This document shows, piece after piece, positions 2,898 to 25,660 of a stretch of DNA of 64,000 nt (positions are counted from its first letter, which is position 1; each line of letters opens with the position of its first letter). The notes under the pieces were generated by a model, which saw only the letters and a list, made by a program, of their open reading frames with translations, was not told where the DNA came from and did not search any database. The position numbers and the translations under genes are program-made. The stretch is from a virus (taxonomy: Duplodnaviria > Heunggongvirae > Uroviricota > Caudoviricetes): IMG/VR virus record IMGVR_UViG_2531839524_000004. One strand, written 5' to 3'.

Positions 2898-3054
2898 CCC
2901 GTCTCCTTTATTTTAATTTGCGCAATTGTCGCCTTGTAGTGTACTCCAGCTACGACATTTAATCATTTATGAGAAATGCTGTTATCACATGGCAGACATA
3001 AGGCCATTTTGTTACTATCAAGCCCCTTTTCACTACAAAGAAGTAATGCCTACT

Positions 3055-5088
3055 ATGACCCAAGTCGCGAAGAAAATTCTGGTGACGTGCGCGCTGCCGT
3101 ACGCTAACGGCTCAATCCACCTCGGCCATATGCTGGAGCACATCCAGGCTGATGTCTGGGTTCGTTACCAGCGAATGCGCGGCCACGAGGTTAATTTCAT
3201 CTGTGCCGACGATGCCCACGGTACGCCAATCATGCTGAAAGCACAGCAGCTTGGTATCACACCGGAACAGATGATTGGCGAAATGAGTCAGGAACATCAG
3301 ACTGATTTCGCAGGCTTTAACATCAGCTATGACAACTATCACTCGACGCACAGCGAAGAGAACCGTCAGTTGTCCGAGCTTATCTACACTCGCCTGAAAG
3401 AGAACGGTTTTATTAAAAACCGCACCATCTCTCAGCTGTACGATCCGGAAAAAGGCATGTTCCTGCCGGACCGTTTTGTGAAAGGCACCTGCCCGAAATG
3501 TAAAGCACCGGATCAATACGGCGATAACTGTGAAGTCTGCGGCGCTACTTACAGCCCGACTGAACTGATCGAGCCGAAATCGGTAGTTTCTGGTGCTACG
3601 CCGGTAATGCGTGATTCCGAACACTTCTTCTTTGATCTGCCTTCTTTCAGCGAAATGTTGCAGGCATGGACCCGCAGCGGTGCGTTGCAGGAGCAGGTGG
3701 CAAACAAAATGCAGGAGTGGTTTGAATCTGGCCTGCAACAGTGGGATATCTCCCGCGATGCGCCGTACTTCGGTTTTGAAATTCCGAACGCACCGGGCAA
3801 ATATTTCTACGTCTGGCTGGACGCGCCGATTGGCTACATGGGTTCCTTCAAGAATCTGTGCGACAAACGCGGCGACACTACCAGCTTCGACGAATACTGG
3901 AAGAAAGACTCCACCGCCGAGCTGTACCACTTCATCGGTAAAGATATCGTTTACTTCCACAGCCTGTTCTGGCCTGCCATGCTGGAAGGCAGCAATTTCC
4001 GCAAGCCGACCAACCTGTTTGTTCATGGCTATGTGACGGTGAACGGTGCGAAGATGTCCAAGTCTCGCGGCACCTTTATTAAAGCCAGCACCTGGCTGAA
4101 TCATTTTGACGCTGACAGCCTGCGTTACTACTACACTGCGAAACTCTCTTCGCGCATTGATGATATCGATCTCAACCTGGAGGATTTCGTTCAGCGCGTG
4201 AATGCCGATATCGTGAACAAAGTGGTTAACCTGGCCTCCCGTAATGCAGGCTTTATCAACAAGCGTTTTGACGGCGTGCTGGCAAGCGAACTGGCTGACC
4301 CGCAACTGTACAAAACCTTTACTGATGCTGCTGAAGTGATTGGTGAAGCATGGGAAAGCCGCGAATTTGGTAAAGCGATTCGTGAAATCATGGCGCTGGC
4401 TGATCTGGCTAACCGCTATGTCGATGAACAGGCTCCGTGGGTGGTGGCGAAGCAGGAAGGGCGCGATGCCGATCTGCAGGCGATTTGCTCTATGGGCATT
4501 AACCTGTTCCGCGTGCTGATGACGTACCTGAAACCGGTACTGCCGAAACTGACTGAACGTGCAGAAGCATTCCTGAATACAGAACTGACCTGGGATGGTA
4601 TCCAGCAACCGCTGCTGGGCCATAAAGTGAATCCGTTCAAGGCACTGTATAACCGCATCGACATGAAGCAGGTTGAAGCACTGGTGGAAGCATCCAAAGA
4701 GGAAGTAAAAGCCGCTGCCGCGCCAGTAACTGGCCCACTGGCAGATGATCCGATTCAGGAAACCATCACCTTTGACGACTTCGCCAAAGTTGACCTGCGC
4801 GTGGCTCTGATTGAAAACGCGGAGTTTGTCGAAGGTTCTGACAAACTGCTTCGCCTGACGCTGGATCTCGGTGGCGAAAAACGTAATGTCTTCTCCGGCA
4901 TTCGTTCCGCTTATCCAGATCCACAGGCACTGATTGGTCGTCACACCATTATGGTGGCCAACCTGGCTCCGCGTAAAATGCGCTTCGGTATCTCCGAAGG
5001 CATGGTGATGGCTGCTGGCCCCGGCGGGAAAGATATCTTCCTGTTAAGCCCGGATGCTGGTGCTAAACCAGGCCACCAGGTTAAGTAA
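3055..5088 (+). CDS. metG: methionine--tRNA ligase
   Basis: Class I aaRS motifs ([16 protein letters not shown]) and Zn knuckle CPKC...CEVC; start taken at MTQVAKKIL (3055) rather than the upstream in-frame ATG at 2926. Confidence 0.95.
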
Positions 5089-5108
5089 TTAAGCAACCAT
5101 TCTTCACA

Positions 5109-5136
5109 ATGCCCGGCAATACGCTGGGCATTTTCA
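5109..5136 (+). terminator. metG terminator
   Basis: atgcccggc...gctgggcat hairpin followed by TTTTC, about 20 bp after the metG stop. Confidence 0.5.
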
Positions 5137-5171
5137 TTTAGACACAATCCCTTCTGATTTACACATACCCT

Positions 5172-5186
5172 AAAACAATTTGTTTT
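5172..5186. promoter_or_regulatory. operator-like palindrome AAAACAA-T-TTGTTTT
   Basis: First copy of the recurrent motif; about 65 bp upstream of the first prophage gene (5250). Confidence 0.5.
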
Positions 5187-5221
5187 CTGCCTTTTGTTGA
5201 TTGAGATAATAAACCACATAA

Positions 5222-5237
5222 GAAAACAACTTGTTTT
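5222..5237. promoter_or_regulatory. operator-like palindrome GAAAACAA-C-TTGTTTT
   Basis: Second tandem copy, 13 bp upstream of ATG 5250. Confidence 0.5.
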
Positions 5238-5249
5238 GGAGTGGTTTAA

Positions 5250-5549
5250 ATGTTGAACATTACCCAAGCCTACCAGGTGGCATTGATCAGCTCATCTCAT
5301 ACATCAGAGGAAGATGCTCGCCGATTCATGATCGCAAGCAATGAGCTGGATTGGGTTTCACAAATTGAGTACGGTTGCATTGTCCACGCCGGGTTACAGG
5401 ACGATGACTGGAAAGATGAGTTGCGTCGATATGGTATATCCGAGGGCGCGATTGCGAACATTCAGAAAGTACTTGATGTAGGCTTTGACTCTGTACATTT
5501 TGATTGTGGCGCACCGGTCGTTGAAGGGCTTGAGTGCTGGCAATGGTAA
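5250..5549 (+). CDS. hypothetical protein (first gene of the prophage early region)
   Basis: ORF track, 99 aa, acidic; preceded by two operator-like palindromes. Confidence 0.5.
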   Translation: MLNITQAYQVALISSSHTSEEDARRFMIASNELDWVSQIEYGCIVHAGLQDDDWKDELRRYGISEGAIANIQKVLDVGFDSVHFDCGAPVVEGLECWQW

Positions 5550-5585
5550 TCCGGCAATCGCTTCATACTAGATAACGGAGAATTT

Positions 5586-5771
5586 ATGCTTAAAGAAGAC
5601 TCATATCTACTAAAGGCGCTTGAAATGCGTGGCGTTGAACCTACAGTGAAAAACGCCCACGATATCTACCTTCAGTTTTCACCGGAGCTGAAACGGCTCA
5701 TAAATCAATACGGGGTTAATGACTCAAGTGTTAAAGCGATGATAGATGATGAATTAGACCATCTCATCTAA
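5586..5771 (+). CDS. hypothetical small protein
   Basis: ORF track, 61 aa; GGAG RBS 7 nt upstream. Confidence 0.4.
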   Translation: MLKEDSYLLKALEMRGVEPTVKNAHDIYLQFSPELKRLINQYGVNDSSVKAMIDDELDHLI

Positions 5772-5923
5772 TCGTTATCCTATGATAATGGTTTCACTTT
5801 GAGATTGTTATTTTTCATAGCCAAAGCTGATGTTTGTGGAAGGTGGATTGATAAACGGATGCGTATTTAGGTTATACAAGTGAGAAAATTGATAATATAT
5901 AAACGCGATTTTTATGTGATGGA

Positions 5924-6493
5924 ATGGATGTGATGGAAACCCAGAACCAACAAACAAAACCTCTGAATAACATTTATGCGTGGATTCTAGCGTTCATGCC
6001 TTTCTTCTTTGGAGTATTGCCGGAAGAGTATACCAATTACGCTATTATAATTGGGGGTGTAACTACCATCGGTTTGTTAGTAGCTGACAGAATGGCTCTA
6101 TCGGAGTCTGGCTGTGAACCACCTTCAATTCTATGGGGGGTATTCCTCCTGCCTGTCTATCTCTGGAAGCGCGCGACTATTACAAAAGGCAGCAGAGTGC
6201 CATTTATCATAATCGTTGCGTCGCTGGCTTGGATTATCTTCATCGGCATCCCACACAAGGACGAGGTTGCTCTTGAAGAAGCAGCCTGCCCTCTCGTGAC
6301 AACTATTCTGAAAGAGAATAACGGTTCGACTGCACCAAAATGTATGAAGGTGACAATAGAGGACAAGGTGACGGATAAGTTCTATAGAGCAACGGCTACA
6401 CTAGACAATGGTAATGACATTAACATTACTCTGGAACTTACCGGTGACAGGAACTTCTACGTCCGTGTTCCAAATGTTTATCTGAACAACTAA
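5924..6493 (+). CDS. hypothetical integral membrane protein
   Basis: ORF track, 189 aa; three to four hydrophobic segments followed by a soluble C-terminal domain. Confidence 0.5.
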   Translation: MDVMETQNQQTKPLNNIYAWILAFMPFFFGVLPEEYTNYAIIIGGVTTIGLLVADRMALSESGCEPPSILWGVFLLPVYLWKRATITKGSRVPFIIIVASLAWIIFIGIPHKDEVALEEAACPLVTTILKENNGSTAPKCMKVTIEDKVTDKFYRATATLDNGNDINITLELTGDRNFYVRVPNVYLNN

Positions 6494-6599
6494 CGGTTGC
6501 AACTTATTGATAATGGCGGTCACAATTTGATTCTTTTCTATAAGAATCCGTTGATCGCCACTACTCTCCTTCCATACCCGCAATCACATCCTTAAATAT

Positions 6600-7457
6600 C
6601 AATAAGTTATAGTTGTTTATACAATCAAGAAAACAACTGAATAACAGATCAACGAAACATCAACGCTTTCACCCGATTTGGTCTAAAAAATTGACGTTTT
6701 CACACATCACTGCTTATACCCGTAACTCTACGCAGCAGACAGCGCCACAGAGTCCAATTTTCACCACAGACGACTCAACACACTACCAACAAAAACACAC
6801 GCTCAAAATCGCTCCCGTTGCGTTACACAACCATATAAACAACATATTTTCAGGTATAACAAAACAACTAAATAACACATATGCCATTACCCAAAACAAC
6901 CAACCTCTTTATGGCAGGCTACCGAAAAGACCCACCTCTTCTCCCCAGGCTACCGGACAACCAACCTAACTTTCACAGGCAATCCGAAAACATTCATACG
7001 CGCGATACCCACGACACGCCATTACCCAAACAGCGAAGAAACACCTGAACCGCTGAAACCCCAACGAAGCCTGTAACCGCAAGGTTTCTCTCAATCCCAA
7101 AAGACACGAAACATAACAATCACGGGAAACGCCATTACCCAATACACGAATAACTACAAAAGCCTTTCACACACTCCAGACAAACAACTCAAACACAACA
7201 ACGAAAGGAATCGCCCACCTGCCATTACTCCATACACGGAGAAGAACAATCACCAAAACGACGAGAACACCCCATAGAAGAACCACCGCAAAACGAACGA
7301 AACCACATACACCGACAGAGAAAACAACACACCCAATTCACCAACAGAAATAGTCGCCGTATAGGACATTCTGGAAGGAGTGAGCATTAACGCCTATAGA
7401 GAGGTTGAGACAGATAAAACACAACATGTATAGCGAAGAAGCCAGGTATGTATAAGT
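6600..7457 (+). repeat. A+C-rich, G-poor non-coding region with four GCCATTAC(C/T)C-initiated repeat units
   Basis: Units begin at 6883, 7018, 7131 and 7221; the only ORF (6613-6969) translates to low-complexity T/Q/N/P/H sequence; strong strand asymmetry visible by eye. Confidence 0.6.
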
Positions 7458-7480
7458 GGGGAGGGAAGGAGGGGTGTCGC
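7458..7480 (+). terminator. intrinsic terminator closing the A+C-rich region
   Basis: ggagg-ggtgtcg-cctcc followed by TTTTT. Confidence 0.55.
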
Positions 7481-7553
7481 CTCCTTTTTCGTATTTATTC
7501 AACTCCTGATTTTATCCCCCCGTAACACCCCTACGGTCAGCCTTCGGTCCATA

Positions 7554-7696
7554 CAGGGAAAAGGCTGCATCCCGCTACAGAAACGGCTGGGTTGCCTTCG
7601 GGGAACGGCTGGAGGTTTTCAGGGAAACGGTCGAGTTGCCTGTGTGGATTTCGGGAAAAGGCTCGATGCCGGTTCAGGAACGGTGGCGTACCGGTA
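7554..7696. repeat. tandem array of about six degenerate 20-25 bp direct repeats (core GGGAAA(A/C)GGCT)
   Basis: cagggaaaaggctgcatcc / cagaaacggctgggttgcc / ggggaacggctggagg / agggaaacggtcgagttgcc / cgggaaaaggctcgatgcc / caggaacggtggcgtacc. Confidence 0.6.
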
Positions 7697-8017
7697 TAGC
7701 GAGAGGGAGAGTTGCGGCTACCCACCTGTAATGTGCGGGAAGAAGAGAGGCGCTCACGTAGGCGGACTTGCTTACCGCTGGATTCCCTCTGAATGCCCAG
7801 CTACAGCGTAATTGTGCCAGACAGCCAACGGGTCACAATCGATTTCAGTAGGTTTTTGGGGAGAGGATTACTCTGCCACCAGCCACTTTCGGCCACTAAA
7901 TCAGAATAATGTAAAAAGTGTACTCGGTACTGAACCTGAAAACTCACTGCCAAAACCACATTCACCGGAATAAAATCCTTTTTCGCCTGTGCGTTATTGC
8001 GATAATAACACCATCAA

Positions 8018-8032
8018 GAAAACATGTTGTTT
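8018..8032. promoter_or_regulatory. operator-like palindrome (variant GAAAACA-TG-TTGTTT)
   Basis: Immediately upstream of the RBS of gene 8045. Confidence 0.45.
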
Positions 8033-8044
8033 AAGGATTGCTTT

Positions 8045-8374
8045 ATGTTTACAAATATCGACATCAACCAAATCAAGAAATTAACTCAAAAAGAGTTTGA
8101 TCAGTTTTATGAGTTAGAAGGTTGGTCTTCCACTCTGATCAATTCAAGATGGGTGCTGGAACTGATGACTCGTGATGACGCACCTGCTTTGATGATCAGC
8201 GACCTGGGTGAAGATGCTGACTTTATGGATATGAGCGAATTTTGTGTGGACACATACAACCGCAGCCAGAAGTACTACTTCACATGCGATAGCGAAAATG
8301 ACGTGATTTCTAAGGTCTATCTTCACCTCGTCCAGCATTGGAACGTTCAGGAGTTTCTTGAAGTATTCGAGTAA
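8045..8374 (+). CDS. hypothetical acidic protein
   Basis: ORF track (8024-8374); start moved to MFTNIDI because ATG 8024 lies inside the operator motif and AAGGA RBS precedes 8045. Confidence 0.5.
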   Translation: MFTNIDINQIKKLTQKEFDQFYELEGWSSTLINSRWVLELMTRDDAPALMISDLGEDADFMDMSEFCVDTYNRSQKYYFTCDSENDVISKVYLHLVQHWNVQEFLEVFE

Positions 8375-8383
8375 CCCCAACCA

Positions 8384-8410
8384 AAGCCAGCATTGCTGGC
8401 TTAATTTCTC
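8384..8410 (+). terminator. hairpin after gene 8045-8374
   Basis: aagccagc-att-gctggctt followed by AATTTCTC (weak U-tract). Confidence 0.4.
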
Positions 8411-8501
8411 TATAGCCGCAGGGAAGAACCTGCATATAGCTCATGCACCTGATCAATATGCTTTGTAGCCGTTTTCTTACTGGTATTATTTACGCCATTG
8501 A

Positions 8502-8516
8502 GAAAACAAGTTGTTT
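8502..8516. promoter_or_regulatory. operator-like palindrome GAAAACAA-G-TTGTTT
   Basis: Abuts the RBS of gene 8528. Confidence 0.5.
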
Positions 8517-8527
8517 ACGGAGTTGTG

Positions 8528-8839
8528 ATGAAAAAATCATTGGTTCTTGGTCTGGACAAAGACCAGAAGAGAAAAGAGAAGCCTGCGCTGGTTGCTCAAT
8601 TAACTTTGCTGGACATCGTTGCCAATGGGACCTCTATTCGTCTGTTCCGTGAAACAGCGGTGTCTTTCGATAAAAACACCTTTACTCGTTATGTAATGAA
8701 TGTTCGTCGCCAGCGTGGAAAAGGCTGGGTGGCATTTCAAAGAATGTGGCCGGAACATCAGCTCGAACTTGCTTTGATGGAAGTTAACCGCGTGGCCCAG
8801 CAAGAGATTCAGAGAGCATCAGTGATGGCAATAGCCTGA
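8528..8839 (+). CDS. hypothetical basic protein
   Basis: ORF track (8498-8839); start moved to MKKSLVLG after RBS ACGGAG; lysine/arginine-rich. Confidence 0.5.
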   Translation: MKKSLVLGLDKDQKRKEKPALVAQLTLLDIVANGTSIRLFRETAVSFDKNTFTRYVMNVRRQRGKGWVAFQRMWPEHQLELALMEVNRVAQQEIQRASVMAIA

Positions 8840-8873
8840 TAATGTGCAAGTGGTAATTAGTCGACCGTACGAC

Positions 8874-8902
8874 AGCCCCGCCATCCTTACGGGGCTTTTT
8901 TG
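8874..8902 (+). terminator. intrinsic terminator
   Basis: agccccg-ccatccttac-ggggct followed by TTTTTT. Confidence 0.6.
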
Positions 8903-8965
8903 TATTGTAAGTACATACTTACGATCATAGAATAGAAAAATAACCAATACACTACGGAGAGTGAA

Positions 8966-9361
8966 ATGACCGCTAAACGCGAAAAACTGACAGTTGATGT
9001 TTACTATGCCTCTGAAACCGCCGAAGGTAAGAATGTGGCAAAAATCACCGTTGTTACGTACAACACCGAAACTGGTGCCGAAGTCCAGGCCAGTACGATC
9101 GTGCGTAAAGGTGATGCCTCCGGCGGCGAGTACGCGACTCAATACCAGTCTATTTTCGATGCAACTGACCCGCTGCTGCTGAAAATCGAGAACTACTTCC
9201 GCCAGGTTGATGAAGAGGTGTTTGAAACCATGATGAATATGGTTAACACCGTATTCGCCTCCAGCCTGAATACCAACACTACCTGGATTGGTCAGTACGG
9301 CCTGCGCATTACCTCCGGCATTCCTGCTGACACCTTAATCCCTGAAAGCGTATTCGCTTAA
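8966..9361 (+). CDS. hypothetical protein
   Basis: ORF track, 131 aa; RBS ACGGAGAG upstream. Confidence 0.55.
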   Translation: MTAKREKLTVDVYYASETAEGKNVAKITVVTYNTETGAEVQASTIVRKGDASGGEYATQYQSIFDATDPLLLKIENYFRQVDEEVFETMMNMVNTVFASSLNTNTTWIGQYGLRITSGIPADTLIPESVFA

Positions 9362-9370
9362 TCCTCTTTG

Positions 9371-9398
9371 AATGGCGCGTAAACCGCGCCATTTTCTT
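9371..9398 (+). terminator. intrinsic terminator
   Basis: aatggcgcg-taaac-cgcgccatt followed by TTCTT. Confidence 0.55.
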
Positions 9399-9405
9399 AT
9401 GCCCG

Positions 9406-9420
9406 ATAACAATTTGTTTT
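9406..9420. promoter_or_regulatory. operator-like palindrome ATAACAA-T-TTGTTTT
   Basis: Shares the extended sequence AACAATTTGTTTTCTGCC with the 5172 copy. Confidence 0.5.
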
Positions 9421-9478
9421 CTGCCTTATCTGATTTGTGAAAATGATTTCACTGAAGCAACTTAATAAGGAAACCATC

Positions 9479-9853
9479 ATGGGACTTGATATCTATATCG
9501 AGACACAGCCTAAAAACGATCTGAATAACGAGGCATCCAGAAAGCAGGTTGCTTACTTCCGTAAGTTCAATGCGCTCGTTGGGTGGATGGAGCGCAACGT
9601 AGGTGAAGTCGAAAATTGTGAGCTTTTAGAATTAACGATGAATGACATTTGTTTTCTGAAGGCTCATTTGATGCACATAAACGAAAGTAATTGCGAAGAG
9701 TACTTGCCTACCCGGGAAGGTTTTTTCTTCGGCAGTCAGGAGTACGATGAAGGTTACTGGCATGATGTGGGGCAGTTGAAAGAGCTTGTGGAAGATCTGA
9801 TTAAGAACCACGACTTTCACAATAACAGACTGACCTTCTGCGCCTGGTGGTAA
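9479..9853 (+). CDS. hypothetical protein
   Basis: ORF track (9437-9853); start moved to MGLDIYIETQ after RBS AAGGAAACC. Confidence 0.5.
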   Translation: MGLDIYIETQPKNDLNNEASRKQVAYFRKFNALVGWMERNVGEVENCELLELTMNDICFLKAHLMHINESNCEEYLPTREGFFFGSQEYDEGYWHDVGQLKELVEDLIKNHDFHNNRLTFCAWW

Positions 9854-9855
9854 AT

Positions 9856-9999
9856 ATGGGCGATTTCAAGAAACGCCTGAAGGAAAGAGCCGAGATGGTC
9901 AGAAAGCAAAACGCCTCTTCTGTCATCAGATACGCAAGGCAGTTTAGTCGCAACAACAAATCAGTTGAGGAAAAGATCCTTAGCGTAATCGGGCGATAA
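9856..9999 (+). CDS. hypothetical small basic protein (47 aa)
   Basis: Own translation MGDFKKRLKERAEMVRKQNASSVIRYARQFSRNNKSVEEKILSVIGR; starts 3 nt after the previous stop; below ORF-track cut-off. Confidence 0.3.
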   Translation: MGDFKKRLKERAEMVRKQNASSVIRYARQFSRNNKSVEEKILSVIGR

Positions 10000-10049
10000 T
10001 TATTAAGGCCATCAGCATTGGTGGCCTTAAATGACCATCTTGTTTCCCG

Positions 10050-10134
10050 CAGGCTAAAAACACCAACCTCTTCCCTCCAGGCAACCGACAAACCCACCTG
10101 TTCCCGTCCGGCTACCGTAACTTTCCACTTTGAC
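10050..10134. repeat. second, shorter copy of the A+C-rich element seen at 6893-6990
   Basis: Shares ...aaaacaccaacctctt..caggc.accg..acccacct.ttc..c.ggctaccg... blocks with 6893-6990. Confidence 0.5.
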
Positions 10135-10168
10135 GCCTTATTCGTACAACGATAATTAACGCCAACAA

Positions 10169-10183
10169 GAAAACAATTTGTTA
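10169..10183. promoter_or_regulatory. operator-like palindrome GAAAACAA-T-TTGTTA
   Basis: 20 bp upstream of ATG 10204, RBS AAGGAA between. Confidence 0.5.
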
Positions 10184-10203
10184 TTTACGATAAGGAATTA
10201 ATC

Positions 10204-10686
10204 ATGAATTTTATCGCTACTGTAAACGCACCCGCACATGGCAATATCGCTGTAACGTTCTCTGACATTGAAAAACGAGTACTTGGTGCATGGCGCGACA
10301 ATGAGACGGTAGAACTGTCAGCACAAGAAAAATGCATTATTGCACGCGACATCATTGGCAATCGTCGTTACTCGCGGGTATTTGAGAAAGCGTATGTGGT
10401 AAATTCTGGATTCGGAACGTTCGTCTTTCCGGTGCGCTCCGGGCGATTCTGCCAGTCCAAGCTGATTGAGTTCGCTACGCAGATTTCTGTCTGGATTAAA
10501 ACTCAATCGTCGTTCAAATTTTCCGACGATGAAGCAGTATCGCAGGGGATGCGGATCGCCAACAATGCAATTAAATGCAAAAACATTACGTATACCGCTG
10601 GCGTTGATACATGGAAACTGTTTTGCGCTAACTTTATGCTGAATGTATACGCAAGCAACCGCATCCACATCCTTGATGGCGTGTAA
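10204..10686 (+). CDS. hypothetical protein
   Basis: ORF track, 160 aa. Confidence 0.55.
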   Translation: MNFIATVNAPAHGNIAVTFSDIEKRVLGAWRDNETVELSAQEKCIIARDIIGNRRYSRVFEKAYVVNSGFGTFVFPVRSGRFCQSKLIEFATQISVWIKTQSSFKFSDDEAVSQGMRIANNAIKCKNITYTAGVDTWKLFCANFMLNVYASNRIHILDGV

Positions 10687-10694
10687 CTGAGAAG

Positions 10695-10850
10695 AGGGCC
10701 AGAAACGGCCCTTTATCTATAGCCACCAGCTGCCGCAGGGAAATTTTCAGAAACGGCGAGGAACGTATTCATGAGCCGACGGGAAACGGCCAGGATTTTT
10801 TTCGGGAAACGGCTGCATTCGCCTTTATGTAGAAAAAACATCGGGAAGCT
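10695..10850. repeat. second array of GGGAAACGGC-type direct repeats
   Basis: ccagaaacggccc / cagggaaattttc / agaaacggcgagg / cgggaaacggccagg / cgggaaacggctgc; first unit doubles as a terminator-like hairpin (agggcc-agaaac-ggccct). Confidence 0.5.
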
Positions 10851-11278
10851 GGTGGAATCCAACCAGCGGTTGTCGGACAGGTGAGCGGGGAAAATTATGA
10901 TGACTTTCGTCGCCTGAGACATCCAGATTTCTTTCGTAGCATAATCACATACGTGATTAAGTGGTGTGATTATGTGAAAAATCACGCGCACATAATACGC
11001 GAGCGGATACGGAACAAAACAAAATGCCGATCCGCGCCGACAAATAAACGCGGATCACATAGCAAGACTAAAAGCCAATGATTAACCATATTCTATAGCG
11101 CAATATAACGCGTTTTAAGCGCGTTAATGTGTTAAGTAATGGGTATGTACTGGCAAGGATATAAAAGCGCGTCTATGGCGTCATTTTGGCGCTTATTTTT
11201 ATGTTGTTGGAGTGAGTTAAAGACAATAAAAAACGCGCCAATGATGGCGCGTTATGGTGGGAGTATTGGAAACGAAAA

Positions 11279-11297
11279 AGCGCCCATAGTGGGCGCT
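11279..11297 (-). terminator. hairpin AGCGCCCA-tag-TGGGCGCT, copy 1 (end of the minus-strand operon)
   Basis: 8-bp stem; on the minus strand it is followed by TTTTTCG; sits directly 3' of the 76-aa gene. Confidence 0.55.
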
Positions 11298-11302
11298 CGA
11301 TT

Positions 11303-11533
11303 TTATTTGTGTAAACTGATTTTAAATCCCATTTCTACAAACGCTTTTAACATTAAAAATATATCAGCGTCGTTCACGTCTGCTTTTTTTCGCTCCTGGT
11401 CGCTCAATAAGTCAATTTTGCGCGTCGTTTCATCTATAAGCTCGACTGAACGCCCAGCGTAACCAGCGATCCCAGCGATGCGATTAACATAATATTCATT
11501 GTGGACGTTAACGTCAGCGATAAGAACAAACAT
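11303..11533 (-). CDS. hypothetical protein (third gene of an AT-rich operon)
   Basis: ORF track, 76 aa. Confidence 0.5.
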   Translation of the reverse strand: MFVLIADVNVHNEYYVNRIAGIAGYAGRSVELIDETTRKIDLLSDQERKKADVNDADIFLMLKAFVEMGFKISLHK

Positions 11534-11553
11534 GATTAAGCTCCTTAAAAAAA

Positions 11554-11757
11554 TTAAATAGAATTTTGAAGTTTTCCGATTAATGCGCTTAAACGTAAGT
11601 ATTCACGTTTGCGCTTGCAATCTCGCTTGCTGTTAAGCAAATCAGAAAACGTAAAATTTAATTGGTCGCGTTGCGCGATCAAATCATCGATTAATTCCAG
11701 TTTATAAGCGCGATACTTTGCGCGATATTCCGCGCGGATCTTGTCATAGCTGACCAT
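11554..11757 (-). CDS. hypothetical basic coiled-coil protein (67 aa)
   Basis: ORF track gives 11554-11802; start moved to the internal ATG (MVSYDKIRAEY) because AAAGGAG RBS precedes it and the annotated N-terminus is encoded by the hairpin repeat. Confidence 0.45.
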   Translation of the reverse strand: MVSYDKIRAEYRAKYRAYKLELIDDLIAQRDQLNFTFSDLLNSKRDCKRKREYLRLSALIGKLQNSI

Positions 11758-11778
11758 TTTTAAAGCTCCTTTAAAGCG

Positions 11779-11797
11779 CCCATAGTGGGCGCTTGAT
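11779..11797 (-). repeat. hairpin AGCGCCCA-tag-TGGGCGCT, copy 2 (intercistronic)
   Basis: Identical 19-bp hairpin plus shared flanks (aaagcgcccatagtgggcgct.gatt) between the 216-aa and 67-aa genes. Confidence 0.55.
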
Positions 11798-11805
11798 TCC
11801 ATTAA

Positions 11806-12456
11806 TTACGCTTTGAAAGCATCAGCTAAATAATTGTAGAAATCATTTTTAATGAAGCGATATTGCTGAGTACCAGCTTTGGCGCTCCCAGCTCCTTTGA
11901 CTTTTTCAACAAGTCCAAGACGTTCGCAAAGATTGATCAACTGGTTGGCTTGAGTATAGCCAGCGTCCAATTTAATTTCGCACGCTTTTTTAGCTTCATT
12001 CATTAAATCGAAAACAGCGCCATTGGTGAACGTGTCGATCTCGTCGTTAATCATATCGATTAAAGCGAATACACGAGATCCTGACATATCAGCGACGGAA
12101 TAAACACATTTACCAGCTTTAATGGATTTAACCAGATAAACCAGTTTTTCCAGTGAATAACTATTAGTCATTGCATCACGAAAAAATACTTCTGGCGCTT
12201 GTTTGCTTGCTTTAATCGCATAGTAGAAAACAGAGCATAATTTATCGTCTTCTACTGCGTTTACGACGTTGTTGATGAAGTAAGCAAGTTTAGTGGTCGC
12301 AGCTTGCATATTTGCTTTGTCTGCTTTAGTGTGCGTACCATTTTTATAATGTTCGTTATATGTTTGAGTTGCCAGATCTGCTTTTTCGCGCAGTTCATCG
12401 GATACAATGGATGCAGCTTCAATGATGGATTTTTTAGAAATGATAATGTTAGCCAT
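11806..12456 (-). CDS. hypothetical protein (first gene of the AT-rich operon)
   Basis: ORF track, 216 aa; AT-rich relative to neighbours; AT-rich promoter region 12457-12690 upstream. Confidence 0.6.
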   Translation of the reverse strand: MANIIISKKSIIEAASIVSDELREKADLATQTYNEHYKNGTHTKADKANMQAATTKLAYFINNVVNAVEDDKLCSVFYYAIKASKQAPEVFFRDAMTNSYSLEKLVYLVKSIKAGKCVYSVADMSGSRVFALIDMINDEIDTFTNGAVFDLMNEAKKACEIKLDAGYTQANQLINLCERLGLVEKVKGAGSAKAGTQQYRFIKNDFYNYLADAFKA

Positions 12457-12739: not shown

Positions 12740-13048
12740 TTATTGAACAGACTCTACAGCCTTACGATTGGTGTCAAATAGCGCATCAACGAACTGTGCC
12801 GATGACTCGCTAGATTCGCAATCCAACATTGCCCGTTCTTCATTTGCCACTTTCTTACACAGTTCCACATTCTCACCTATCGCTTTTCCTGCTTTTACGG
12901 CTGCCGAAAATTGATACATGCAAACTGATACATTCTGAGACGTTGAGCACACGTCATTCATCAGCGACTGAATGACAGGCTTATAGTCCATTGCATTTGC
13001 CGCAACTGAGCAAAGTAAAAATAATGGTGGTAACAATATCGATTTCAT
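12740..13048 (-). CDS. hypothetical secreted/periplasmic protein
   Basis: ORF track, 102 aa; N-terminal signal-peptide-like MKSILLPPLFLLCSVAANA; several cysteines. Confidence 0.55.
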   Translation of the reverse strand: MKSILLPPLFLLCSVAANAMDYKPVIQSLMNDVCSTSQNVSVCMYQFSAAVKAGKAIGENVELCKKVANEERAMLDCESSESSAQFVDALFDTNRKAVESVQ

Positions 13049-13051
13049 AAC

Positions 13052-13576
13052 TCAAAAAGGCAAAATTCGTTCAACCCAATCGAACAAAACAACTATTTTT
13101 CTACCGTTCTCGACACGTAGTGTAACCTGACAAGCATCTGCGCCTGCTGACACCCCCTCAATTTCACGGCCATCCGCCATGTACACCCTTATAGATTTGT
13201 TTGCTTTGTAGGCTTGGTTGCAAATTGCAAAAAAATCGCGGCGTGATGGCCGATTATCGACATAATCAGGGTGAACTGTTAGTCGACCTTTGAAATCGTG
13301 TGCGATACTGTCAACCACACCTGATTCAATTGTACTAATGCGTTCAAGTGGGAGCCTTATACGATTTTCTTTGTCAAAAGGGGCTGGGCAAAGGTCAACT
13401 TTGTTACGAGATGGCATGAGGCCATAAACGTACATGCAAAACGCCTGGCCATCTTCGAGAGTGACCCTTACAGGAATTTGTTCTCTGCGCCAGAACATCA
13501 GTAGTTTTTCAACGTTAGTGTAATCTCGCGGCCAGAGTTCAGCTTGGATACCGTAGGTAATATCTTTGGTTGTCAT
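13052..13576 (-). CDS. hypothetical protein
   Basis: ORF track gives 13052-13654; start set at the internal Met (MTTKDITYG) to avoid overlap with the upstream lipoprotein gene. Confidence 0.45.
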   Translation of the reverse strand: MTTKDITYGIQAELWPRDYTNVEKLLMFWRREQIPVRVTLEDGQAFCMYVYGLMPSRNKVDLCPAPFDKENRIRLPLERISTIESGVVDSIAHDFKGRLTVHPDYVDNRPSRRDFFAICNQAYKANKSIRVYMADGREIEGVSAGADACQVTLRVENGRKIVVLFDWVERILPF

Positions 13577-14352: not shown

Positions 14353-15912
14353 CTAATCTCGTTTCAGAACTCCAAAATCGAATGCTCCATCAATAGGCAA
14401 TACACCTTCTGCAAAGCCAGGTGTGGTGTCGATGATGTGTTTTCGCTCATAAGAGTGAGACAACAGGTATTTGTTGCTAATGTCAATGAAATCAGTGATA
14501 AAACACACGTTTGCCTGATTTTTTTTGGCTCGTAAGCCACGACCGACACGCTGCCTCATTTCAACTTCTGCTTTCCCACCACCAGCAAGAATGACCGCAC
14601 CAACGCTTGGCACATCAACACCGACATCCAGAATAGTCGAGCCTATTAAAACATCTATTTCTCCAGACGCTAAACTGTTCAGCTTTGCTTGCCTTGTCGT
14701 CTGGTTAGATTCCCCATAGATGAAATCAACTTTAAGACCTGACTCCTTCATCATCTCCATCAGGATTTGCCCGTGGCGTTTAAGACGAACCAGAGTCATG
14801 CAGTTGAGTGAATGTTGCTTATAAAGCAATGCCTCGCGCACTATGGCCTCGTTACGTCCCAAATTATACACGATCCCCAACTGATAAGCCTTTTGGTAGG
14901 CGGTGCTCATACCAACTCTAAAATTGAGGTGTTTGTTGGCAAGTTCGGCCTTGATTCTGGCCTCGTCTGGCTTGTAGGCAACTTTATGATAAAGGAAGTA
15001 CGGCTTTGCCAGAATGCCTCGATCAATCAGGTACTTTTCTGTGACTTTAATTTCAATTCGCCCGGCCACCGCCATCAGGCGCATGTTGGCTTCCGTCGAA
15101 TCCTTCATGAACGGCGTGGCTGTAAGCGCCAGACGATAGTCTGCGTTCACACATAATCTGGCAATGTCATAGAAATTAGAGCCTGAAGACTCATGCGCTT
15201 CTTCCAGAATAAGCAGAGACACACTTGAAAGGAAGCGTTTCACCAACTCCCGACGTTTGAGGTGGTAGCTCTTTTTATCTGGTGTTGCATCGCGTGGTGG
15301 TTCTTCAAGGAAACTTGCCAGAGTTTGAACTGTAGCGACGTTGATATGTCGTGATACCTGGAACTCACCCGAGCCAATGACTCCAACCTTTTGGTCTTTT
15401 AACCACGGTTCGCCATTTTCGGCGCGGTAGTCGATGGATCTCTGGAAGTTTTCGGCCATTTGAAACATCAGAACAGAGCGGGTTGTTAAAAATAATGTCA
15501 TTCGACCGATACGAGCAGCTGCTTTGCAGGCAACGTTAGATTTCCCGCCACCAGTAGCGATCTGCGCAATCATCATTCCCTCTCGAACCAGTGTTTCCAC
15601 AGTCTGATCCTGATACGCATAATCAGGATTGTATGGGAATGGGTTAACCGCAGGATTTGGTTTACCAAGCGCCGGGGCTTTGTCTTTGCGGATATGAACA
15701 CATTTGATGCCCGCCTTGTTCAAGTTCGCCGCTACAGGCTTGGCAAAGCCAGCAGGGAACGAGTTTTTACTCCAGTTGAACATCGTGCTTGTGCCCTTCC
15801 AGTCGCCAGTCTCGACTTCGTAGCTCAACATCTGTTGCACCATTTGCTTTACCTTGTCATCTGCGCCAGAAATAAGCGCATTAACTGCGTTAGATACAAT
15901 CCGAACAGTCAT
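14353..15912 (-). CDS. superfamily 2 DEAD/DEAH-box helicase
   Basis: Walker A ATGGGKS, Walker B/DEAH-like LILEEAH, motif III LALTATP; 519 aa. Confidence 0.8.
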   Translation of the reverse strand: MTVRIVSNAVNALISGADDKVKQMVQQMLSYEVETGDWKGTSTMFNWSKNSFPAGFAKPVAANLNKAGIKCVHIRKDKAPALGKPNPAVNPFPYNPDYAYQDQTVETLVREGMMIAQIATGGGKSNVACKAAARIGRMTLFLTTRSVLMFQMAENFQRSIDYRAENGEPWLKDQKVGVIGSGEFQVSRHINVATVQTLASFLEEPPRDATPDKKSYHLKRRELVKRFLSSVSLLILEEAHESSGSNFYDIARLCVNADYRLALTATPFMKDSTEANMRLMAVAGRIEIKVTEKYLIDRGILAKPYFLYHKVAYKPDEARIKAELANKHLNFRVGMSTAYQKAYQLGIVYNLGRNEAIVREALLYKQHSLNCMTLVRLKRHGQILMEMMKESGLKVDFIYGESNQTTRQAKLNSLASGEIDVLIGSTILDVGVDVPSVGAVILAGGGKAEVEMRQRVGRGLRAKKNQANVCFITDFIDISNKYLLSHSYERKHIIDTTPGFAEGVLPIDGAFDFGVLKRD

Positions 15913-24739: not shown

Positions 24740-25660
24740 ATGCCAGAACAAAAGATGAAGATTACGGAAGAGGCATTTTCGGATTTTACGGGGCATATGT
24801 GCCGTGCCGGATTTACCAATTCTATCTCCGATGAACCTTTAACCGAGCGGCAACAAAGTCAGCTATCTGCTTGTTTGCAGGCGGTTCCCCTCTCCCAATC
24901 CGTAAACATAACCCCGGCTTCACCGTCAGTTTTGGTTGGGAAAACTGTTCAACTTAGTGCAGGTATTAGTATGGGTAAGAGTGCCAGTTCATTCACCTGG
25001 AAGTCAGCCAATGACCAAATTGCAACCGTTAACGGCACTGGATTAGTAACTGGCGTAGCCCCAGGCAAAGTAAAAATTACTGCAACTGATCAGGAAACCC
25101 AGCTTTCCGCTTCAGTGGAAGTCACCGTAAATCCGGTAGCCGTTCAATCCGTAACGGTAACGCCAGACTCAACCTCTGTTGAGAAAGGAAAATCAGTCAG
25201 TCTGAAAGCGAATGTTCAGCCGTCAAATGCGACGAATAAGGCTGTTACCTGGTCTTCCAAAAATGAAGATAAGGCAACGGTAGACCAGAGCGGGAACGTA
25301 ACTGGTGTAGAAGTTGGCACTGCGACGATTGAGATCGTTTCCCAAGATGGTAGCAAAAAGGCAACTGCAACGGTGGAAGTAACTGCGCCTGTTGTGGCTG
25401 TTACCGGCGTCGAAATCGACCCAAATAGCACAACCGTTGAGGCAAACAAAACTGTTCAGCTGACAGCAAATGTCGAGCCGGCAGGAGCCACAAATAAAAC
25501 CGTTACTTGGGAATCTAAAAATACCGAGTTTGCAACGGTTGACAGCGAAACCGGTGTTGTAACTGGTGTTGCGGCTGGTACTGCCACAATCGAGGTTACT
25601 ACCCAAGATGGTAGCCACAAAGCGACAGCGACCGTAGAAGTCACTGCTGCACAGGAATAA
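24740..25660 (+). CDS. Ig-like (Big_2-type) repeat protein, likely head decoration/fibre
   Basis: Three tandem about 85-aa repeats each ending ...ATVD.(S/T)G.VTGV..G.A.I...; same repeat type recurs at the C-terminus of the major tail protein. Confidence 0.7.
   Translation: MPEQKMKITEEAFSDFTGHMCRAGFTNSISDEPLTERQQSQLSACLQAVPLSQSVNITPASPSVLVGKTVQLSAGISMGKSASSFTWKSANDQIATVNGTGLVTGVAPGKVKITATDQETQLSASVEVTVNPVAVQSVTVTPDSTSVEKGKSVSLKANVQPSNATNKAVTWSSKNEDKATVDQSGNVTGVEVGTATIEIVSQDGSKKATATVEVTAPVVAVTGVEIDPNSTTVEANKTVQLTANVEPAGATNKTVTWESKNTEFATVDSETGVVTGVAAGTATIEVTTQDGSHKATATVEVTAAQE

Follow-up and report, generated by a model that had tools for sequence, protein, structure and literature searches.

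The window, a stretch of 64,000 nt (IMG/VR virus record IMGVR_UViG_2531839524_000004), is by its sequence matches part of an Escherichia coli SSU5-family phage-plasmid. We describe here a region at 6600-7480, numbered on the + strand, which lies downstream of a variable cargo gene; all positions are those of the window unless another sequence is named. The best match of the region with its flanks was the enterotoxigenic E. coli plasmid NZ_LR882992.1 (99%). Among 5,426 complete E. coli genomes, 243 gave a match to region and flanks, in each case on a plasmid of ~100-130 kb, and further matches were found in phage Cyrano/pLF82 (97%), Klebsiella phage-plasmids (~73%) and Salmonella phage SSU5 (68%). 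The metG gene (2926-5088) belongs to the cargo of the element and is not chromosomal. The plasmid initiator RepA and the origin lie ~33 kb from the region, the phage primase/helicase ~47 kb and the terminase ~14 kb. In every relative inspected, the 0.9-kb region is part of a module of 1.4-1.5 kb that has no coding sequence (CDS) in the RefSeq annotation; in the window this stretch without CDS spans 6494-8068. The module is annotated in none of the records examined, and a literature search found no paper that mentions the region.

As far as sequence comparison goes, the module is a core feature of enterobacterial SSU5-type phage-plasmids, of which essentially every examined member has one. It was detected in 243 E. 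coli genomes and the portal gene of the same element in 237. The numbers of PLSDB records with module and portal were 90/91 for Enterobacter, 49/49 for Salmonella, 25/25 for Citrobacter, 9/9 for Cronobacter and 7/7 for Shigella, while module records exceeded portal records in Klebsiella (431/340) and Escherichia (224/204). The same architecture is present in SSU5, pHCM2, the Klebsiella elements and the distant pCAV type, whose portal is ~68% identical, and the module was found across at least seven genera of enterobacterial family members. Yersinia pestis pMT1/pFra kept the portal (85% identical) and lacks the module; here the whole block from the nucleotide-metabolism genes through the module was lost beside IS1541 (pFra/pMT1 stretch 7374-8520). 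In Kluyvera pSCW13-2 an IS3 element sits within the module. Because pMT1 deleted it and the Kluyvera plasmid carries an IS3 inside it, the module is dispensable for plasmid replication and maintenance. Module remnants in large Klebsiella plasmids are truncated by insertion sequences and were uninformative.

A scan of the GTDB species genomes with an exact 27-mer gave only two matches. An exact 27-nt module core was seen at 6697-6723 of JAEWTL010000044.1, a 29.6-kb contig binned as Bacillota ('MAG: Bacillota bacterium', a metagenome-assembled genome), which is most likely mis-binned enterobacterial phage-plasmid DNA. An Acinetobacter AB_1 relative, A. baumannii pTG22653, has a roughly syntenic CDS-free stretch of 1.35 kb (4375-5726), packed with TGTAGAAA / ATAGATAGA repeats and GGTATAAGGAGAGAG and with A above T. 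Being neither C-rich nor unfoldable, it was not usable as a homolog of the module.

A first reading of this DNA (the first-pass annotation) had described ~0.9 kb of A+C-rich, strand-asymmetric, non-coding sequence, and composition, skews and the lack of Pfam, PHROG and RefSeq CDS assignments agree with this. The segment 6600-7350 (A 40.3, C 31.3, G 12.3 and T 16.1%) has the highest A+C content of all 750-nt segments of the 64 kb, 71.6%. In segments of 200 nt its GC skew ranges from -0.25 to -0.54 and its AT skew reaches +0.64. Read as RNA, the + strand of 6750-7350 shows the weakest folding of the whole window (-7 to -17 kcal/mol per 150 nt; mean -37, standard deviation 8), whereas the minus strand has ordinary folding energies. 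Over 616 nt, the minimum free energy (MFE) was -72 kcal/mol for the + strand and -146 kcal/mol for the minus strand. The whole-body fold was slightly better than that of shuffled sequences (z -2.8), an effect of a few local hairpins, for example AACC-GCAA-GGTT at ~7065-7076.

For comparisons between relatives, we aligned 11 diverse lineages, 17 close ones and pCAV. An A+C content of 65-78% is retained in all lineages, although the identity of the body is merely 59-69%. Among close relatives, minor alleles with C>T changes outnumber those with T>C changes (21 vs 8; p 0.024), which suggests that the C-richness is held by selection. Variable columns amount to 9.3% in the body and to 12-13% in flanking non-coding DNA. 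As a double-strand function does not explain the strand asymmetry, the most economical assumption is that the + strand acts in single-stranded form, most simply as RNA.

The one sizeable open reading frame (ORF), at 6613-6969, could be placed in neither Pfam nor PHROG, while each of the eight neighbouring proteins falls into a PHROG. The 17 close relatives differ from each other by indels of 1, 11 and 31 nt, and reading frames are not kept even among relatives of 95-99% identity. By these signs the region is non-coding and not a decayed gene. A search of 5000-12000 with Rfam cmscan at E<=1 gave nothing inside 6500-8000, and ARAGORN detected no tRNA or tmRNA. Judged by these searches, the region matches no described RNA or DNA element and no named family holds it. 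The first-pass annotation had proposed a database search, which showed conservation well outside this genome (SSU5, Klebsiella, pCAV and others). Since the region is conserved elsewhere and is not a decayed gene, neither of the outcomes named there as refuting it, no transcript together with no conservation outside this genome, or decay of a known protein gene, was found. The features of the module are as follows.

6509-6566, + strand: T1, a two-tier hairpin directly after the variable cargo gene (-19.3 kcal/mol, z -4.9).
6621-6645, + strand: O1, an operator-like site, AAGAAAACAACTGAATAAC, followed by two TCAACG motifs (entry to 6665).
6691-6720, + strand: a promoter-like element, TTGACG-N17-TTATAC(C), with invariant hexamers and a spacer that varies in sequence and never in length.
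6728-7350, + strand: the A/C body (A 41%, C 33%, G 12%, T 14%), whose + strand cannot fold.
6836-6851 (entry to 6870), + strand: O2, a further operator-like site, of which the copy here is degenerate (TAAACAACATATTTTC) and that of SSU5 perfect (TAAACAAGTTGTTTTC); AACAAAACAAC comes next.
6883, 7018, 7131 and 7221, all + strand: four exact GCCATTACYC units; one other exact copy occurs in the 64 kb.
6893-6989, + strand: three tandem C-rich repeats of ~31 nt, consensus ACCCACCTCTT-N-CCAGGCTACCGA, degenerate, with 64-69% identity between copies.
7221-7270, + strand: the best-conserved block of the body, GCCATTACTCCATACACGGAGAAGAACAATCACCAAAACGACGAGAAC, headed by the last unit and near-invariant over the 11 lineages (alignment columns 742-789).
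7351-7462, + strand: a purine-rich 3' block containing CCGTATAG and IR-R.
7449-7456, + strand: IR-R, the right arm of the bracketing inverted repeat (IR), TGTATAAG here and GGTATAAG in most lineages.
7463-7499, + strand: T2, a hairpin with a T-rich tail, GGGAAGGAGG..CCTCCTTTTT; the hairpin at 7463-7489/90 is followed by CGTATTTATT (-21.4 kcal/mol, z -2.5).
7500-7720, + strand: the adjoining CDS-free part, with a conserved ATTCAA..ATCCCCCGTAAC and then six G-rich direct repeats.
10005-10121, + strand: a second small copy, consisting of a hairpin AAGGCCA..TGGCCTT (10005-10031) and two 31-nt C-rich repeats (10056-10121).

The four repeat units had been noticed at the first pass; they are exact at the given positions and all on the + strand, although the fourth does not end in CCCAA as had been reported and reads GCCATTACTCCA. 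From the composition of the region, 0.0135 copies of the 8-mer GCCATTAC are expected, and the probability of four or more is ~1e-9. Each lineage has four to six units, all in one orientation, with a 27-nt head GCCATTACyyMATAyrCGGAGAAsAAC. The units are spaced by 135, 113 and 90 bp here and by 142, 90, 45, 41 and 52 bp in SSU5, with no helical phasing. The 31-nt repeats are present in all lineages, with two copies in Klebsiella and three copies of a CAGGCA type in pCAV, and one close relative has lost exactly one 31-nt unit. Tandem Repeats Finder scores no array at 6893-6989 because the copies are too degenerate. Internal pieces of the body were lost or replaced in single lineages (Buttiauxella, Salmonella N16). 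A boxA-like CUCUUUA in the 31-nt repeat, an ops-like GGCGGT in T1, a likeness to the tRNA-Val anticodon arm and the MS2 operator were considered by eye only.

The bracketing inverted repeat consists of 8 bp. Its left arm, IR-L (CTTATACC, 6713-6720), is at the same time the 3' part of the promoter-like element, and across lineages it lies 663-978 nt from the right arm (735 nt here). Two independent compensatory double changes were detected, from C-G to U-A in Klebsiella (CTTATATC with GATATAAG) and from U-A to C-G in pCAV (CTTACACC with GTGTAAG). None of 500 column shuffles reached the observed covariation score, and slid controls scored far lower. With arms picked by eye and three states only, this covariation is suggestive and falls short of proof; pairing of the arms within a single strand and recognition of both sites by one protein would each fit it. 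A long-range helix between the C-rich left flank (6560-6585) and the purine block (7455-7475) was rejected, as the flank varies among close relatives and shows no compensation.

The promoter-like element was compared in the 11 lineages, pCAV and 16 close relatives. Against the sigma-70 consensus, its -35 hexamer matches in five of six positions and its -10 hexamer has no T at position 6, for which reason a strict sigma-70 scan skips it. A possible hairpin, H0, would be formed by the second TCAACG as 5' arm and GTTGAC at 6690-6696. Its positions are 94% paired, with one compensatory and two G-U changes, and the statistics are weak (44 of 500 shuffles). An RNA in which the bracketing repeat and H0 form helices would have to start upstream of 6657, and TTGACG and TTATAC would then be helix arms and not a promoter. 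A promoter-type motif considered genome-wide, GTATAAGAG, is under-represented (3 observed, 10 expected) and was dismissed.

O1 belongs to a family of sites of the type AAACAAnTTGTTT / AAGAAAACAA, and pCAV has the full palindrome at its place. O2 is found in pCAV ~470 nt after the promoter-like site. In Salmonella CP082664.1 an insertion of ~230 nt with an ORF of 53 amino acids (aa) follows directly after O2 and replaces the first unit and the first 31-nt repeat (alignment columns ~417-690). As this ORF starts right after O2, a real gene cassette can stand behind O2. In the window, 18 copies of the palindrome AAACAAnTTGTTT were counted (6.2 expected); it precedes each small early gene, with sites at 5173, 5224, 8020, 8504, 9407, 10171, 19289, 19314, 48740 and 51671 and degenerate copies at 6627 and 6837. 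It often reads AAGAAAACAAnTTGTTT and stands just 3' of a TGnGATAAT extended -10 and 5' of the Shine-Dalgarno sequence of the small genes. This collection looks like the operator set of one repressor over early 'cassettes'.

At the left border, conservation sets in sharply at TTGAYAWTGGCGGTCAC (~6513) while the genes upstream differ even among close relatives, so that the module borders a cargo hot-spot. The T1 hairpin at this border has an outer stem GGCGGTCA / TGATCGCC and an inner stem around an invariant TTTCTATAAG. It has no U-tract and is followed by a C/T-rich tail to ~6600. In SSU5 and pCAV the same TTTCTATAAG is likewise enclosed by a hairpin, though in another register (-12.6 and -17.0 kcal/mol, respectively). 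In close relatives, the hot-spot (~5250-6513) holds a gene for a membrane protein, a DUF5983 protein or a coiled-coil protein, with the junction always at TTGAYAWTGGCGGTCAC. DUF262 and type I restriction-modification genes are found there in Klebsiella, and ydfZ, a GIY-YIG nuclease or Ivy in other lineages. For a 61-aa protein encoded at 5586-5771, the family of the T7 gp5.9 RecBCD inhibitor (PF25708) gave a faint hit below threshold (E 0.005; 17 bits, cutoff 24.5).

At the right end, T2 agrees within the window with the definition of an intrinsic terminator (a G+C-rich hairpin followed by a U-tract). The terminator of the first-pass annotation is thus real in hairpin and T-run, with coordinates a few bases off (7458-7480 instead of 7463-7489/90), but the label 'canonical terminator' does not hold across the family. 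The stem is kept in nine lineages through G-C/G-U/A-U changes, two of them double changes, and the T-run is present in some lineages only; pCAV has no T2, and that of SSU5 is weak (z -0.5). The six G-rich direct repeats behind it (7555-7700; GGGAAAAGGCTG / GAAACGGCTGG / GGGAAACGGTCG) are spaced by 21-26 bp and conserved in SSU5, Klebsiella and pCAV. They look like iterons, yet their sequence differs from that of the RepA iterons. RNA structure in the G-rich block 7500-7800 had no covariation support (term +0.36), and none was seen in 7440-7720 beyond T2. Chi (GCTGGTGG) occurs 13 times in the window (1.3 expected). One minus-strand Chi just right of the module (7876-7883) is retained in most relatives; in pCAV there are two, one in each orientation (pCAV stretch 6246 and 6297), and in pMT1 a Chi lies within the hairpin before the second copy (pMT1 stretch ~8330).

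The second small copy had been described as a degenerate repetition, at 10050-10134, of the first 100 bp of the unit. It consists of two units of ~31 nt at 10056-10121, and the supposed 100-bp original is the set of three degenerate tandem repeats at 6893-6989. The stretches 6925-6955 and 10057-10087 are 84% identical. The copy lies upstream of the promoter and operator of the gene at 10204-10686, and it is kept in Y. pestis pFra/pMT1, upstream of a gene for 160 aa, despite the missing main module. Its hairpin has no U-tract (-19 kcal/mol, z -4.6); both loci share the layout of a strong U-tract-less hairpin followed by a C-rich tract. Among the 141 + strand segments of 78 nt at or above the 99th percentile for C minus G, 72 lie in 6500-7350 and 15 more in the second copy (87/141 together); they form clusters at these two places only, and segments with C/G above 3 cluster likewise. 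More + strand tracts with C strongly over G were seen at 12801-12831, 13101-13121 and 14506-14571, opposite a block of minus-strand genes, a setting in which antisense transcripts would be prone to Rho. In the minus-strand gene block, a hairpin AAAGCGCCCATAGTGGGCGCT is found at 11277-11307 and 11773-11803 (90% identical, 496 nt apart), and weak sub-threshold Rfam hits (isrK, ncS025) fell at 11224-11297.

Expression data are available for an E. coli LF82 lysogen that carries the 97%-identical Cyrano (ten samples; PMC9928086, S1 Table). CYRAN_103, an ORF annotated in Cyrano that corresponds to ~6614-6970 of the window, had log2(fpkm+5) values of 2.32-4.27 in all ten samples, equal to 0-14 fragments per kilobase per million (fpkm) (PMC9928086). 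In macrophage samples the downstream early gene CYRAN_105 came to ~200 fpkm; the range for the upstream gene CYRAN_102 was ~57-590 fpkm (PMC9928086). Because the values fall from 57-590 to 0-14 fpkm, the module is silent in the lysogen and transcription of the cargo stops at T1. The first-pass annotation had suggested a long RNA from the + strand. Promoter-like hexamers, fixed spacing and the 3' hairpin are compatible with it, and the lysogen data show no such transcript.

We tentatively favour the reading that the module is a non-coding transcription unit, gated by a repressor, whose product is an RNA platform that is obligately single-stranded. The unit would be self-contained, with the cargo hot-spot on one side and the array of small early genes on the other, and a prophage repressor would keep it off. 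Derepression, by induction or infection, would then yield an untranslated RNA of ~0.75-0.85 kb. Its A/C body, unable to pair with itself, would stay open as a single-stranded loop bounded by the bracketing helix and T2, and this loop may offer many sites, as a platform or decoy, to a factor with affinity for single-stranded RNA. By default the candidate for this factor is Rho, because the sites it uses (rut sites) are C-rich, G-poor, unstructured and untranslated. The conserved motifs point to an extra, putative sequence-specific partner besides Rho. The layout shows T1 where the cargo transcripts end, O1 and O2 flanking the conserved TTGACG-N17-TTATAC, and then ~620-730 nt of a G/T-poor sense strand. 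O1 and O2 are copies of the palindrome that also precedes the neighbouring early genes, and the silence in the lysogen fits repressor gating.

Several observations weigh against such a platform. No transcript was seen over the first ~360 nt in LF82, even in macrophage samples with early genes at ~200 fpkm, and a consensus scan detected no good sigma-70 site upstream of 6657. MFE folds of the whole transcript do not recover the bracketing helix or H0, and the concerted change of two inverted sites is equally expected from one DNA-binding protein. The T-run of T2 is missing in several lineages. Signatures of known sponges are absent from the region, and there is no complementary sequence within the 64-kb window. 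Lastly, Rho should cut short an untranslated C-rich RNA and thereby limit its accumulation. A bolder version of the proposal, which we think improbable, is a long non-coding RNA of the lytic phase, written in an A/C alphabet so as to be unfoldable, in which the 8-bp helix and the terminator hairpin hold an open loop of ~700 nt that titrates a host factor binding single-stranded RNA (Rho or a partner of the GCCAUUAC motif) and so takes over host RNA metabolism. We know of no described RNA decoy of this design and of no described RNA antagonist of Rho.

The RNA sponges CsrB/CsrC (for CsrA) and CrcZ (for Hfq/Crc) resemble the region in having many short motifs in accessible single strand, varying copy number and a stand-alone non-coding unit with its own terminator. 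The single-stranded part of the region is far longer, and it is borne by a phage-plasmid and silent in lysogens. Unlike in CsrB, GGA is not enriched, with 7 observed and 6.0 expected here and 6-15 against 6-13 expected across the 11 lineages (Klebsiella lies below expectation); a GGA sponge for CsrA was therefore rejected. The motif AUACACGGAG, which resembles what we take to be the CsrA consensus from systematic evolution of ligands by exponential enrichment (SELEX), did not rescue this reading. In comparison with CrcZ and the distal face of Hfq, (ARN)4 occurs 0 times (1.4 expected), (ARN)3 twice (6.3 expected) and AANAANAA twice (2.7 expected), and an Hfq (ARN)n sponge was dropped as its motif is depleted. 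AgvB is a prophage-encoded anti-sRNA (an RNA against a small RNA) and a C/A-rich mimic of GcvB targets; the region is likewise C/A-rich and borne by a mobile element. The 13-mer CAAACACAACAAC at 7190-7202 is complementary to what is presumably the R1 seed of GcvB. However, it is polymorphic among close relatives and not conserved in SSU5 or Klebsiella, and the conserved motifs are unrelated to it; a GcvB sponge was rejected.

P4 (CI RNA, seqA/B/C), N15 (CA RNA) and P1/P7 (c4) have long untranslated leaders with short repeats on one strand, which control early or anti-immunity expression via termination. The module shares with them short one-strand repeats in a plasmid-prophage or satellite. 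It differs in that no complementary match to the region longer than chance was found elsewhere in the 64-kb window (the rest of the plasmid was not searched), in that no sign of a processed small RNA was seen, and in that it is not expressed in the lysogen, whereas immunity RNAs are made in lysogens. Of the labels proposed at the first pass, 'sponge-type RNA' and 'cassette boundary' each catch part of the picture. Among known systems, a sponge or platform RNA or a rut tract would come closest to the element, which lacks the defining traits of the CsrB, CrcZ, P4/N15-type, iteron and ssi families.

Much of the same evidence could be read as a cis-acting Rho-dependent barrier or attenuator, which is possible, if rather doubtful. 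A polymerase that passes T1 or starts inside the module would make a naked C-rich, G-poor RNA, Rho would load and remove the polymerase before the G-rich repeats and the early cassettes, and exonucleases would trim the RNA to the U-tract-less hairpins; the 3' ends of Rho-dependent terminators are trimmed back to a hairpin. The clustering of 72 of the 141 top-1% C-minus-G segments in 6500-7350, with 15 in the second copy, speaks for such a barrier, as do the strong U-tract-less hairpin followed by a C-rich tract at both loci and the drop from up to ~590 fpkm upstream to 0-14 fpkm. The module also always adjoins the variable cargo hot-spot. The body is untranslated and unstructured with C at 33% and G at 12%, and by sequence it would agree with the description of a rut site (at least 80 nt, C well above G); unfoldable, untranslated, C-rich RNA is a Rho substrate (review PMC12360218). 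The region likewise resembles Rho-dependent terminators such as lambda tR1 in its C over G, its lack of structure and translation, the U-tract-less hairpin just upstream and the sharp drop in RNA. However, with ~650 nt instead of ~80-100 nt it is five to eight times longer than a rut site needs. A barrier would account for the composition, the position and the silence of the region but leaves unexplained the specific repeats, the near-invariant core of 45 nt, the 27-nt heads, the operators, the promoter-like element and the bracketing repeat. Low U is not required for Rho binding, and in Klebsiella the upstream gene points away from the module, which is still kept.

If the conserved motifs are instead read as double-stranded DNA, the GCCATTAC heads, the 31-nt repeats, the CTTATACC/GGTATAAG pair and the G-rich repeats would form a protein-binding array, such as a lytic origin or enhancer, an accessory site for packaging or partition, or a scaffold for repressor looping. 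We regard this as unlikely, although several families of direct and inverted repeats vary in copy number, the concerted 8-mer changes fit one protein reading both sites, six iteron-like G-rich repeats adjoin, the region is silent as RNA in LF82, and Acinetobacter AB_1 relatives carry a roughly syntenic CDS-free stretch filled with repeats. An array of this kind gives no reason for the depletion of G and T on one strand over 650 bp, held against mutation at 59-69% identity; the unit spacing is not helically phased, and no gene for replication, terminase or partition is adjacent. Iteron origins (P1 oriR/incA, lambda ori) share with the region direct repeats of 10-30 bp, variable copy number and an adjoining G-rich iteron-like array, but the region has no phasing, a strong strand asymmetry and no adjacent initiator gene. 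The RepA iterons TATGCTGTCAGCGG differ in sequence and lie elsewhere, together with a DnaA box and a GATC cluster. A plasmid origin was discarded, with repA ~33 kb away and pMT1 replicating without the module, as was an incA-like site for RepA titration, the iterons being different. The plasmid origin itself (NZ_LR882992.1 ~109060-109318; 25060-25319 of the retrieved stretch, outside the window) has a DnaA-box-like ATATCCACA, seven GATC sites and five TATGCTGTCAGCGG iterons, followed by repA, and resembles what we assume to be the layout of P1 oriR. RecA is among the proteins of the element, and Cyrano has genes for a Pol III alpha subunit and an integrase.

That the region is a functionless remnant of a low-complexity (T/Q/N/P/H-rich) protein gene or of degenerate cassettes seems very improbable. 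The traces of cassette-type operators and -10-like sequences at O1 and O2, the CYRAN_103 annotation and the pieces lost or replaced in Buttiauxella and Salmonella N16 would be expected of decay. This reading is largely refuted by the missing Pfam and PHROG matches and the frames broken among 95-99% relatives; moreover, the module is present in essentially every enterobacterial member, in at least seven genera and in pCAV, and it is less variable than flanking non-coding DNA (9.3% against 12-13%), with composition and motifs maintained. Hardly credible is a structured regulatory RNA, a single-strand initiation (ssi) site or an invertible DNA switch, to which the whole-body fold (z -2.8) and the inverted repeat bracketing the body could be credited. 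The region gives the least structured RNA of the window, matches no Rfam family, tRNA or tmRNA, and has no covariation-supported structure in 7440-7720 beyond T2. The structured RNA considered at the first pass is thus not supported, the + strand being the least foldable of the window and without an Rfam match. A single-strand initiation element or primosome assembly site (PAS), likewise considered there, requires stable stem-loops, and the + strand MFE here is the weakest in the window. A switch of the fimS/Hin type is excluded because the inversion junction was absent (never covered to at least 80%) from all 228 module-carrying E. coli genomes analysed for it; all 12 of 12 lineages have the same orientation.

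Among clinical E. coli, Klebsiella, Enterobacter and Salmonella, phage-plasmids of the SSU5 type are common, and they can carry resistance genes. They are present in about 4% of complete E. coli genomes, and how they are regulated has hardly been studied. The module is among their very few conserved non-coding parts and adjoins a site at which defence, metabolic and resistance cargo is exchanged. It offers a defined target of 0.9 kb in tractable systems, namely LF82/Cyrano, PhiR41_1 on K-12 and SSU5. If it is a DNA element, it marks a cis-site of the lytic programme. If it acts as the single-stranded RNA platform that we favour, it would be an unusually clear case of selection for a non-folding RNA, and maybe a new route by which a phage engages Rho or another RNA-binding protein.

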